The translations under genes and the position numbers were made by a program. DNA of 12,017 nucleotides from a virus (Duplodnaviria > Heunggongvirae > Uroviricota > Caudoviricetes), in IMG/VR virus record IMGVR_UViG_2526164649_000015. One strand, 5' to 3'. Below are positions 5,153-6,451 of the stretch, in pieces (position 1 is the first letter of the stretch; each line of letters opens with the position of its first letter). Under the pieces are notes generated by a model. It worked only from the letters and a program-made list of their open reading frames with translations. It was not told the DNA's origin and made no database searches.

Positions 5153-6022
5153 ATGCCGTTACCATTCCCCTTCGATTTTAAACATCCTGATTACCAGATG
5201 GTTTTTGAATGGCGGATGGAACGCCTACAGCGCATTCGCCAGAATCCTGAAATATTGCCTGCACTAAAACAGTTTTACCGTACCAACCCGGCTCAGTTCA
5301 TTATCGACTGGGGCATGACAACGGACCCGCGTAATATTGATTATGGCCTGCCGGTGACCATTCCGTTTTTACTCTTCCCTAAGCAGGAGGAGTGGATCCA
5401 CTGGATTATGAAACGCTGGAGCAATCGGGAGAATGGTATTACCGAAAAATCCCGTGAAATGGGGCTCAGTTGGACCGCGATCGGACTGGCCTGCTCGCTT
5501 TGTCTCTTCAACAAAGAAATGGTTATCGGTTTCGGCTCCCGTAAAGAGGAATACGTCGACAGCACCGGTGACCCGAAAGCATTGTTCTGGAAGGCGCGCA
5601 AGTTCGTGGAAACACTACCTGTAGAGTTTCGCGGTTCGTGGAGCGAGAAGAAGCACGCGCCATATATGCGTGTTGAGTTTCCTGAAACTGGCGCGGTTAT
5701 CAAAGGTGAGGCTGGCGATAATATCGGTCGTGGTGACCGTACGACCCTTTATTTTGTGGATGAGGCTGCTTTTCTCCAGCGACCATTACTTATTGATGCC
5801 GCGCTTTCCCAGACAACCCGATGTCGTATCGATCTCTCATCGGTTAACGGTATGAACAACCCCTTCGCACAGAAGCGGCACAGTGGAAAAATCCCGGTGT
5901 TTACGTTTCACTGGCGTAGCGATCCGCGTAAAGACGATGAGTGGTCCGACCTTACTGACGGTTACTGCGGTATTTCAGACCGTAATGAATACAGGAGAGG
6001 TGTCAGTGGGAAGTACGGATAA
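5153..6022 (+). CDS. phage terminase large subunit, N-terminal ATPase domain only (C-terminal nuclease domain absent)
   Basis: Deviant Walker A-like KSREMGLSW and Walker [13 protein letters not shown] ends at 289 codons (stop 6020-6022), whereas terminase large subunits are normally much longer; no nuclease-like continuation in any frame. Confidence 0.65.
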
Positions 6023-6149
6023 GTCGTCTCCCACGGACAACGATAAAGCAAAAGGGGCCGCATCGGTTAAAACGCAGCCAGTTACGGCGTCGGTGACACA
6101 ACCGTCAGACGCTGACAGACGAAGCGCCACGAACAGGGGGATCACCTGA
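6006..6149 (+). CDS. hypothetical small protein (about 47 aa, Ser/Thr/Asp/Lys-rich)
   Basis: GTG at 6006 preceded by AGGAGAGG (5993-6000); stop TGA 6147-6149 overlaps the next ATG by 1 nt (translational coupling). May be a remnant C-terminus of a deleted gene. An in-frame ATG at 5985 is an alternative start. Confidence 0.3.
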
Positions 6150-6451
6150 TGCTGGAAATTGTTTTATCTCCCGTTAAAGCCCAGCAGTTTACGGTGACAC
6201 TGGGCGCTCAGGTCTGCACCATTCGCCTGAATCAGCGTACTACGGGGATGTATATCGATATCATTGTTAATGGTGAACCGTGCCTGTATGGCGTGCTGTG
6301 TCTGAATAATAACCGGATTGTCCGGTACGGATACCTGCCGTTTCAGGGGGACCTGTTTTTTACCGACACGGAGGGGAATAGTGACCCTGACTGGCGGGGG
6401 CTCGGATCCCGGTACCGGCTCTACTGGCTGTTACCTGAGGAACTGATATGA
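6149..6451 (+). CDS. hypothetical phage tail-module protein (100 aa), unknown function
   Basis: ATG 6149 with AGGGGG 6135-6140 upstream; stop 6449-6451 overlaps the next ATG at 6448 (ATGA coupling). I could not place it in a family by eye. Confidence 0.5.

Follow-up and report, generated by a model that had tools for sequence, protein, structure and literature searches.

The window, by which we mean the whole 12,017-nucleotide stretch analysed here, carries in its middle part two small open reading frames, ORF1 (6006..6149) and ORF2 (6149..6451), which lie between what is left of a large terminase gene (TerL) and a baseplate hub gene and are followed by a run of further tail genes. The features of this region are given below, with the prophages of Escherichia coli RMDEC465 (locus L001) and E. 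coli CFSAN029787 (locus L002) as references.

5153..5941, plus strand: 5' part of TerL, about codons 1-263 of 539 (99.6% identity to L002; phrog_2, terminase large subunit, E 2.3e-13)
Between 5941 and 5942, no strand: deletion junction, with a 4-bp microhomology, TGGT, at 5942..5945 (blastn segment overlap and three-way end comparison)
5943..6149, plus strand: 3' remnant of the tube-initiator gene, codons 169-236 and the stop (identical to the end of L001 11498-12208; equivalent of Pam3 gp17; RefSeq 'phage baseplate protein')
6006..6149, plus strand: ORF1, 47 codons, being codons 190-236 of the truncated tube-initiator gene (identity to the intact gene; no gene call)
6149..6451, plus strand: ORF2, baseplate plug, 100 aa, intact (PF22479, the family of Pam3 gp18 and E217 gp33; phrog_349; WP_000890114.1)
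6448..7317, plus strand: baseplate hub, 289 aa (PF22759 E217_GP41, E 6e-8; phrog_196 baseplate hub, E 4.5e-63; RefSeq 'baseplate hub protein')
7298..7975, plus strand: central spike, 225 aa (spike N-terminal domain and GpV Apex motif; RefSeq 'membrane-puncturing spike protein')
7988..8344, plus strand: sheath initiator, 118 aa (phrog_120, E 1.2e-36; precomputed PF10934; RefSeq 'contractile injection system sheath initiator')
8341..9581, plus strand: baseplate J wedge, disabled, split into 8341..9090 and 9114..9581 (1-bp deletion at 9049, mapped against L001; PF04865)
9583..10187, plus strand: second wedge (DUF2612 / Phage_Wedge1), disabled, split into 9583..9840 and 9825..10187 (1-bp deletion at 9807)
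10174..11559, plus strand: tail fibre, 461 aa (collinear with the tail fibre gene of L001 and L002)

Insertion elements lie upstream of these genes. Nested IS3-family elements span 2873-4917 (orfB on the minus strand at 2873..3709; orfA and orfB on the plus strand at 3638..4057 and 4100..4909), and the small terminase gene is cut by IS elements at ~4918, with its last ~77 codons left. A gene for a LysR-type regulator (2395..2904) is likewise truncated by the IS3-family elements. An IS2-like element (ORFs 837..1247 and 1205..2110) lies within 1-2257 and appears to split a minus-strand gene for an alpha/beta hydrolase (Peptidase_S15-like), the pieces of which are found at 1..636 and 2081..2257.

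ORF1 can be read from a GTG at 6006, 8 nt past an AGGAG (5993-5997), in a frame that ends at a TGA at 6147-6149; the mechanical ORF in this frame is longer (5883..6149). ORF2, of 100 codons, runs to 6451 from an ATG at 6149 that shares one base with this stop (TGATG), the next gene starts at 6448 with a 4-base overlap (ATGA), and Shine-Dalgarno (SD)-like motifs precede both the plug start (GGGGGA) and the hub start (GAGGA). These coordinates, overlaps and motifs are in the sequence as the original prediction described them, and it had also correctly recognized the terminase remnant upstream (TerL codons ~1-263) and the hub gene downstream (PF22759/phrog_196).

The product of ORF2 matched PF22479, "Cyanophage baseplate Pam3 plug gp18", with an E-value of 1.7e-22 and 80.2 bits (curated cutoff 24.2), its residues 1-94 aligning with profile positions 1-99 of 101, and a precomputed assignment to the same family is present in six assemblies. 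In PHROGs it matched phrog_349, "virion structural protein" (E 7.8e-30), and its translation is 100% identical to RefSeq WP_000890114.1, a "phage baseplate plug family protein"; among the NCBIfam models there is none for the plug or the tube initiator, nor for ORF1 or the TerL remnant. The exact protein was found on 961 contigs, its UniRef name being 'Cyanophage baseplate Pam3 plug gp18 domain-containing protein', and its DNA is 99.8-100% identical in nine genomes (megablast, complete E. coli genomes). Homologues were recovered by tblastn from 147-148 phage records at 36-52% identity, 147 of them with at least 80% coverage, and the hosts of these phages include Acinetobacter, Xanthomonas, Burkholderia, Ralstonia, Aeromonas, Klebsiella, Edwardsiella and Pantoea. 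Judged by its sequence, ORF2 is an already catalogued and ordinary phage baseplate plug gene. The original prediction had presented the two ORFs as being of unknown function and had named a match of the 100-aa ORF to a known tail protein family as the result that would count against it, and PF22479 and WP_000890114.1 are such matches.

In searches of the PDB with the single plug sequence, E217 gp33 (8ENV/8EON) and Pa193 9B45_A were matched with E-values of 0.006-0.007, and a 9-sequence profile matched Pa193 9b45_A (E 2.1e-7), E217 gp33 8env_G (E 1.8e-6) and the Bas63 "spacer protein" 9NDY_N (E 0.003). The Pam3 gp18 chain in the PDB was not matched in these sequence searches; the plug is linked to Pam3 through the Pfam family and the fold search. 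The homologue search supplied only 14 close relatives, so that the alignment behind the AlphaFold model was shallow and its mean pLDDT just 66 (65.8; pTM 0.56); in this model, eight beta-strands are followed by a short C-terminal helix at residues 96-99. The six best Foldseek matches of the model in the PDB were all small baseplate chains, Pam3 7yfz_h being the first and the others 9b45_A (Pa193), 8env_G (E217), 9ndy_N/O (Bas63) and 7kh1_A4 (XM1), with TM scores of 0.49-0.55 (0.55 being the best), probabilities of 0.85-1.00 and weak E-values of 0.017 or worse. This predicted fold can serve as corroboration only. The profile searches and structure prediction that had been proposed for the 100-aa protein led, in sum, to baseplate chains in the PDB and to a beta-sandwich fold of modest model confidence.

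The plug is encoded in a contractile-tail baseplate module, beside the tube-initiator and hub genes. The order of this module, namely tape measure, a protein of ~200-270 aa at the tube-initiator position, a ~100-aa plug, a ~285-aa hub, spike, sheath initiator, J, second wedge and fibre, is kept in the two E. coli prophages L001 and L002 and in Edno5, PA-1, phiE131 and 2_D05, which are phages of Edwardsiella, Pantoea, Burkholderia and Aeromonas, and the synteny check that the original prediction had suggested thus found the plug slot preserved throughout this set. The protein at 7988-8344 gave no match in our Pfam scan at E <= 0.1, as opposed to the precomputed PF10934 Sheath_initiator, a discrepancy that probably stems from a difference in Pfam version or from a filtering effect.

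Several other features of the surrounding modules were observed. The E. coli prophages are otherwise 99.6% identical, but blastn aligned nothing in them to the middle of the tail fibre gene (10712-10975); over 10976-12017 identity to them is down to 92-95%, and the receptor-binding end of the fibre looks mosaic. The tail fibre assembly gene is uninterrupted in the window and broken by IS4 in L001. In the EIEC-type E. coli prophages, an ipaH type III effector gene lies directly after the tail fibre module (L001 21811-23526; L002 40846-41028); ipaH genes are known to associate with prophage ends. In Edwardsiella phage Edno5 (locus L009), a non-structural block at 1936-3629 sits within the tail operon between the tape-measure and tube-initiator genes, and includes an Arc-like repressor, the anti-repressor Ant, a small 'partition protein ATPase' and hypothetical genes.

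Directly upstream of the plug in E. coli RMDEC465 and CFSAN029787 is a 711-bp gene that encodes a protein of 236 aa (WP_000010342.1), and ORF1 corresponds to the last 47 residues of this protein with 100% identity. At the DNA level, window 5942-6149 equals L001 12001-12208 with no mismatches, these being the last 208 bases of the parent gene, and the E. coli matches to window 5800-6460 (megablast, complete E. coli genomes) all start at window 5942. Residues 64-182 of the parent 236-aa protein matched PF21821 Dit_like (E 2.4e-6; 28.1 bits, cutoff 24.2), and ORF1 alone had no Pfam match; the Dit-like barrel domain is not contained in ORF1, the window retaining residues 169-236 and ORF1 residues 190-236. 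By these alignments, ORF1 is a fragment of a member of the Dit-like family and not a member itself, and the one-base TGATG overlap is the native junction of the tube-initiator and plug genes. A single-sequence phmmer search of the PDB with the 236-aa tube initiator found nothing, and a 5-sequence profile gave marginal matches to Phi92 gp135 (E 0.016) and to the PhiTE 'Tube initiator protein' 9cuy_K (E 0.046). In composition, ORF1 is the Ser/Thr/Asp/Lys/Ala-rich C-terminal tail of the tube initiator, which is poorly conserved and of low complexity, and its earlier description as 'low complexity' was a fair one. The family search with ORF1 returned a marginal match to phrog_1830, a family of unknown function (E 0.0027); ORF1 is explained by its 100% DNA identity to the intact gene. 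The possibility that the tube-initiator tail has a conserved start site within the gene was rejected, as an SD and start codon (GTG) at the equivalent internal position are absent from the homologous genes of four distant relatives (Edno5, PA-1, phiE131 and 2_D05).

The deletion was mapped by blastn against the essentially complete prophage of E. coli CFSAN029787 (L002), which lies at 520.7-561.8 kb in NZ_CP011416.1. Window 4918-5945 corresponds to L002 20005-21032 with 99.6% identity and window 5942-10711 to L002 34313-39084, so that 13,284 bp are missing between the terminase and tube-initiator remnants. The two segments overlap by exactly 4 bases, and TGGT occurs at both deletion ends in the intact prophage. 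The deletion spans from codon 264 of the large terminase, which has 539 aa in its intact form in CFSAN029787, to codon 168 of the tube initiator, and fuses the terminase out of frame to tube-initiator codon 169. Lost with it were the genes for portal, head morphogenesis, scaffold, capsid, neck, sheath (DUF3383) and tube (E217_Gp32 family), as well as the chaperone genes and the tape measure/transglycosylase. Past the junction, the sequence of which is CGTAAAGACGATGAGTGGTCCGACCTTACTGAC, the TerL frame reads through 25 foreign codons to a stop at 6020-6022. An exact-protein look-up found the very same chimeric 289-aa TerL product on record for Shigella flexneri (EIQ11019.1, strain 2850-71; 17 contigs), and the gene layout downstream of it is alike in all six fetched S. 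flexneri loci. A 33-base pattern spanning the junction had no exact match in a contig collection with one genome per species, and our guess is that this collection does not include an S. flexneri strain bearing the deletion.

It was also observed that an ATG at 5937-5939, which is out of frame in the terminase part (GAC GAT GAG), was put in frame with the tube-initiator remnant by the deletion. It opens a possible chimeric ORF of 70 codons, the product of which was absent from ~15 billion predicted proteins.

Decay is also evident further downstream. The J gene is intact, at 413 aa, in the fetched loci L001-L004, and its frameshift at 9049 is shared, among the fetched loci, only with L005 (GCA_000268085.1); the DUF2612/Phage_Wedge1 gene, which measures 606 bp when intact in L001 and L002, is split in six of the six fetched S. 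flexneri loci. Divergence from the intact prophage amounts to ~0.4% (16 substitutions and 2 indels in 4,772 bp), and the plug ORF has 0 changes in its 303 bp, where ~1.1 would be expected; with about one change expected, its unchanged state therefore says nothing on selection. The GC and GC3 contents of ORF1 and ORF2 are like those of their neighbours, and this comparison of composition did not set the two ORFs apart. Promoter- and terminator-like sites over 4700-6600 were no more numerous than in shuffled sequence.

Other readings of the two ORFs were weighed. The original prediction had viewed ORF1 as chained by translational coupling to the genes after it and as having a plausible ribosome-binding site, and indeed an SD-like AGGAG stands 8 nt before an in-frame GTG and the stop overlaps the plug start codon. 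In the intact relatives, however, the stretch from the SD to the GTG consists of codons 186-190 of an unbroken 236-codon gene, GTG 6006 being codon 190 and the 'RBS' bases encoding part of Thr-Gly-Glu, and the stop/start overlap is the ordinary boundary of this gene with the plug. The supposed site is thus coding sequence, and the four distant phages have no SD and start in the equivalent place; moreover, no gene is called between the terminase remnant and the plug in six of six assemblies, none of five possible products (starts at 5883, 5937, 5985, 6000 and 6006) occurs among ~15 billion predicted proteins, and the sole family match is the marginal one to phrog_1830. We therefore regard it as highly unlikely that ORF1 is a genuine small gene expressed from this GTG, perhaps by re-initiation after the TerL stop (6022), and coupled to the plug. 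Of the chained pair initially described, ORF2 stands as a gene beyond chance, given its 147 phage records and its Pfam match, but ORF1 does not stand as an independent ORF, its frame running over 5883..6149. As for the 100-aa ORF, the suggestion that it is an uncharacterised accessory (moron-like) gene that merely sits in the slot before the baseplate genes draws on its small size, on the 'hypothetical protein' label that its homologue still bears in many GenBank phage records and on the lack of an NCBIfam model. It has next to no chance of being correct, however, in view of the full-length, high-scoring PF22479 match and the RefSeq plug name, of homologues that were built into the cryo-EM baseplate maps of E217, Pa193 and Bas63 (with Pam3 as the best fold match), of a position that is invariant across phages of five host genera, and of GC and GC3 values like those of the neighbours.

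A different question is whether the baseplate-only remnant, from plug to fibre, was kept in S. flexneri by selection for a use that benefits the host, or is neutral debris. For selection one can cite the intact reading frames of plug, hub, spike, sheath initiator and fibre, and the recurrence of the remnant in several S. flexneri assemblies; in addition, in intact relatives an ipaH effector gene is found at the end of the module. Yet each of the two wedge genes carries a frameshift, and one of the two is disrupted in every S. flexneri locus fetched; sheath, tube, tape measure and tube initiator are no longer encoded; the upstream late-gene control was replaced by IS elements; at ~0.4% divergence, 0 changes in 303 bp are expected by chance; and promoter-like sites are no commoner than in shuffled sequence. 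Such retention by selection seems to us very improbable, and we see just as slim a prospect that the remnant is expressed for a non-virion host function or that the internal GTG serves to make the tube-initiator tail as a separate peptide that binds the plug.

The locus is almost certainly part of a decayed S. flexneri prophage in which a single deletion of 13,284 bp left ORF1 as a remnant of the tube initiator and ORF2 as an intact baseplate plug, in line with one of the alternatives offered at the outset, a deletion remnant plus a small tail protein. The window carries the late region of a temperate contractile-tail prophage of S. flexneri, in which one deletion between two TGGT tetranucleotides took out all DNA from midway in the large terminase gene to tube-initiator codon 168, and ORF1 is the surviving C-terminal tail of the tube initiator, a pseudogene fragment. 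Pam3 encodes its tube initiator as gp17, its plug as gp18 and its hub as gp19, and the authors of the Pam3 study propose that opening of the wedge ring sets the plugs free (PMC9942802); in E217, the partner of gp33 is the stretch of ~40 residues at the C-termini of gp37/gp38, and gp33 is lost on contraction (PMC10329688). By analogy with the cryo-EM structures of these two phages, a functional phage of the present type would carry six plug monomers, each a small two-layer beta-sandwich with a short C-terminal helix, which would dock on the C-terminal extensions of the tube-initiator ring and sit wedged with the hub-spike complex on one side and the core helical bundles of the six wedge units on the other, so fastening the wedge ring to the hub; opening of the baseplate and contraction of the sheath would then release the plugs. 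By its position only, the ORF1 fragment may correspond to the plug-docking extension, a tail that is poorly conserved.

In the window itself the plug is without a structural role: sheath, tube, tape measure and tube-initiator barrel are gone, and with its docking partner and the rest of the tail lost, the plug can therefore do nothing structural here. Most likely it has escaped mutation merely through its small size as a target and the short time since the deletion. The result is of little importance beyond correct annotation: 6149..6451 should be labelled baseplate plug (PF22479), 5943..6149 truncated tube-initiator pseudogene, and the whole region defective prophage remnant of Shigella flexneri. 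The base-exact junction (TGGT, 13,284 bp) can be used as a lineage marker for strains that carry the remnant.

Among known systems, Pam3 gp18 (PF22479; PDB 7YFZ) resembles the window plug in belonging to the same Pfam family (80 bits, full length), in its size of ~100 aa and in its predicted beta-sheets and C-terminal helix, for which it is the best fold match, and the gene order gp17-gp24 of Pam3 (PMC9942802) matches the order around the plug. The two proteins share, however, only ~21% identity in the structural alignment, and unlike Pam3 the phage of the window is temperate, has a lambdoid early region and an enterobacterial host, its plug gene lying in a dead prophage without partners. The baseplate adaptors E217 gp33 and Pa193 gp34 (8ENV/8EON, 9B45) are related to the window plug by direct sequence homology; in E217, six copies of gp33 sit on the C-terminal extensions of a tube-initiator-like ring and are lost on contraction (PMC10329688), and the window hub and the intact relative's tube gene belong to the E217 gp41 and gp32 families, respectively. 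In contrast to the window, the gp33 gene lies beside the tube gene and not beside the hub gene gp41 (PMC10329688), and the initiator ring is a gp37/gp38 heterodimer, whereas here a single Dit-like gene directly precedes the plug. In the EIEC-like E. coli prophages, WP_000890114.1 is 100% identical to the window plug and the end of WP_000010342.1 to ORF1; unlike the window, these prophages still have the complete 236-aa gene and, upstream, the 13.3 kb with head and tail genes.
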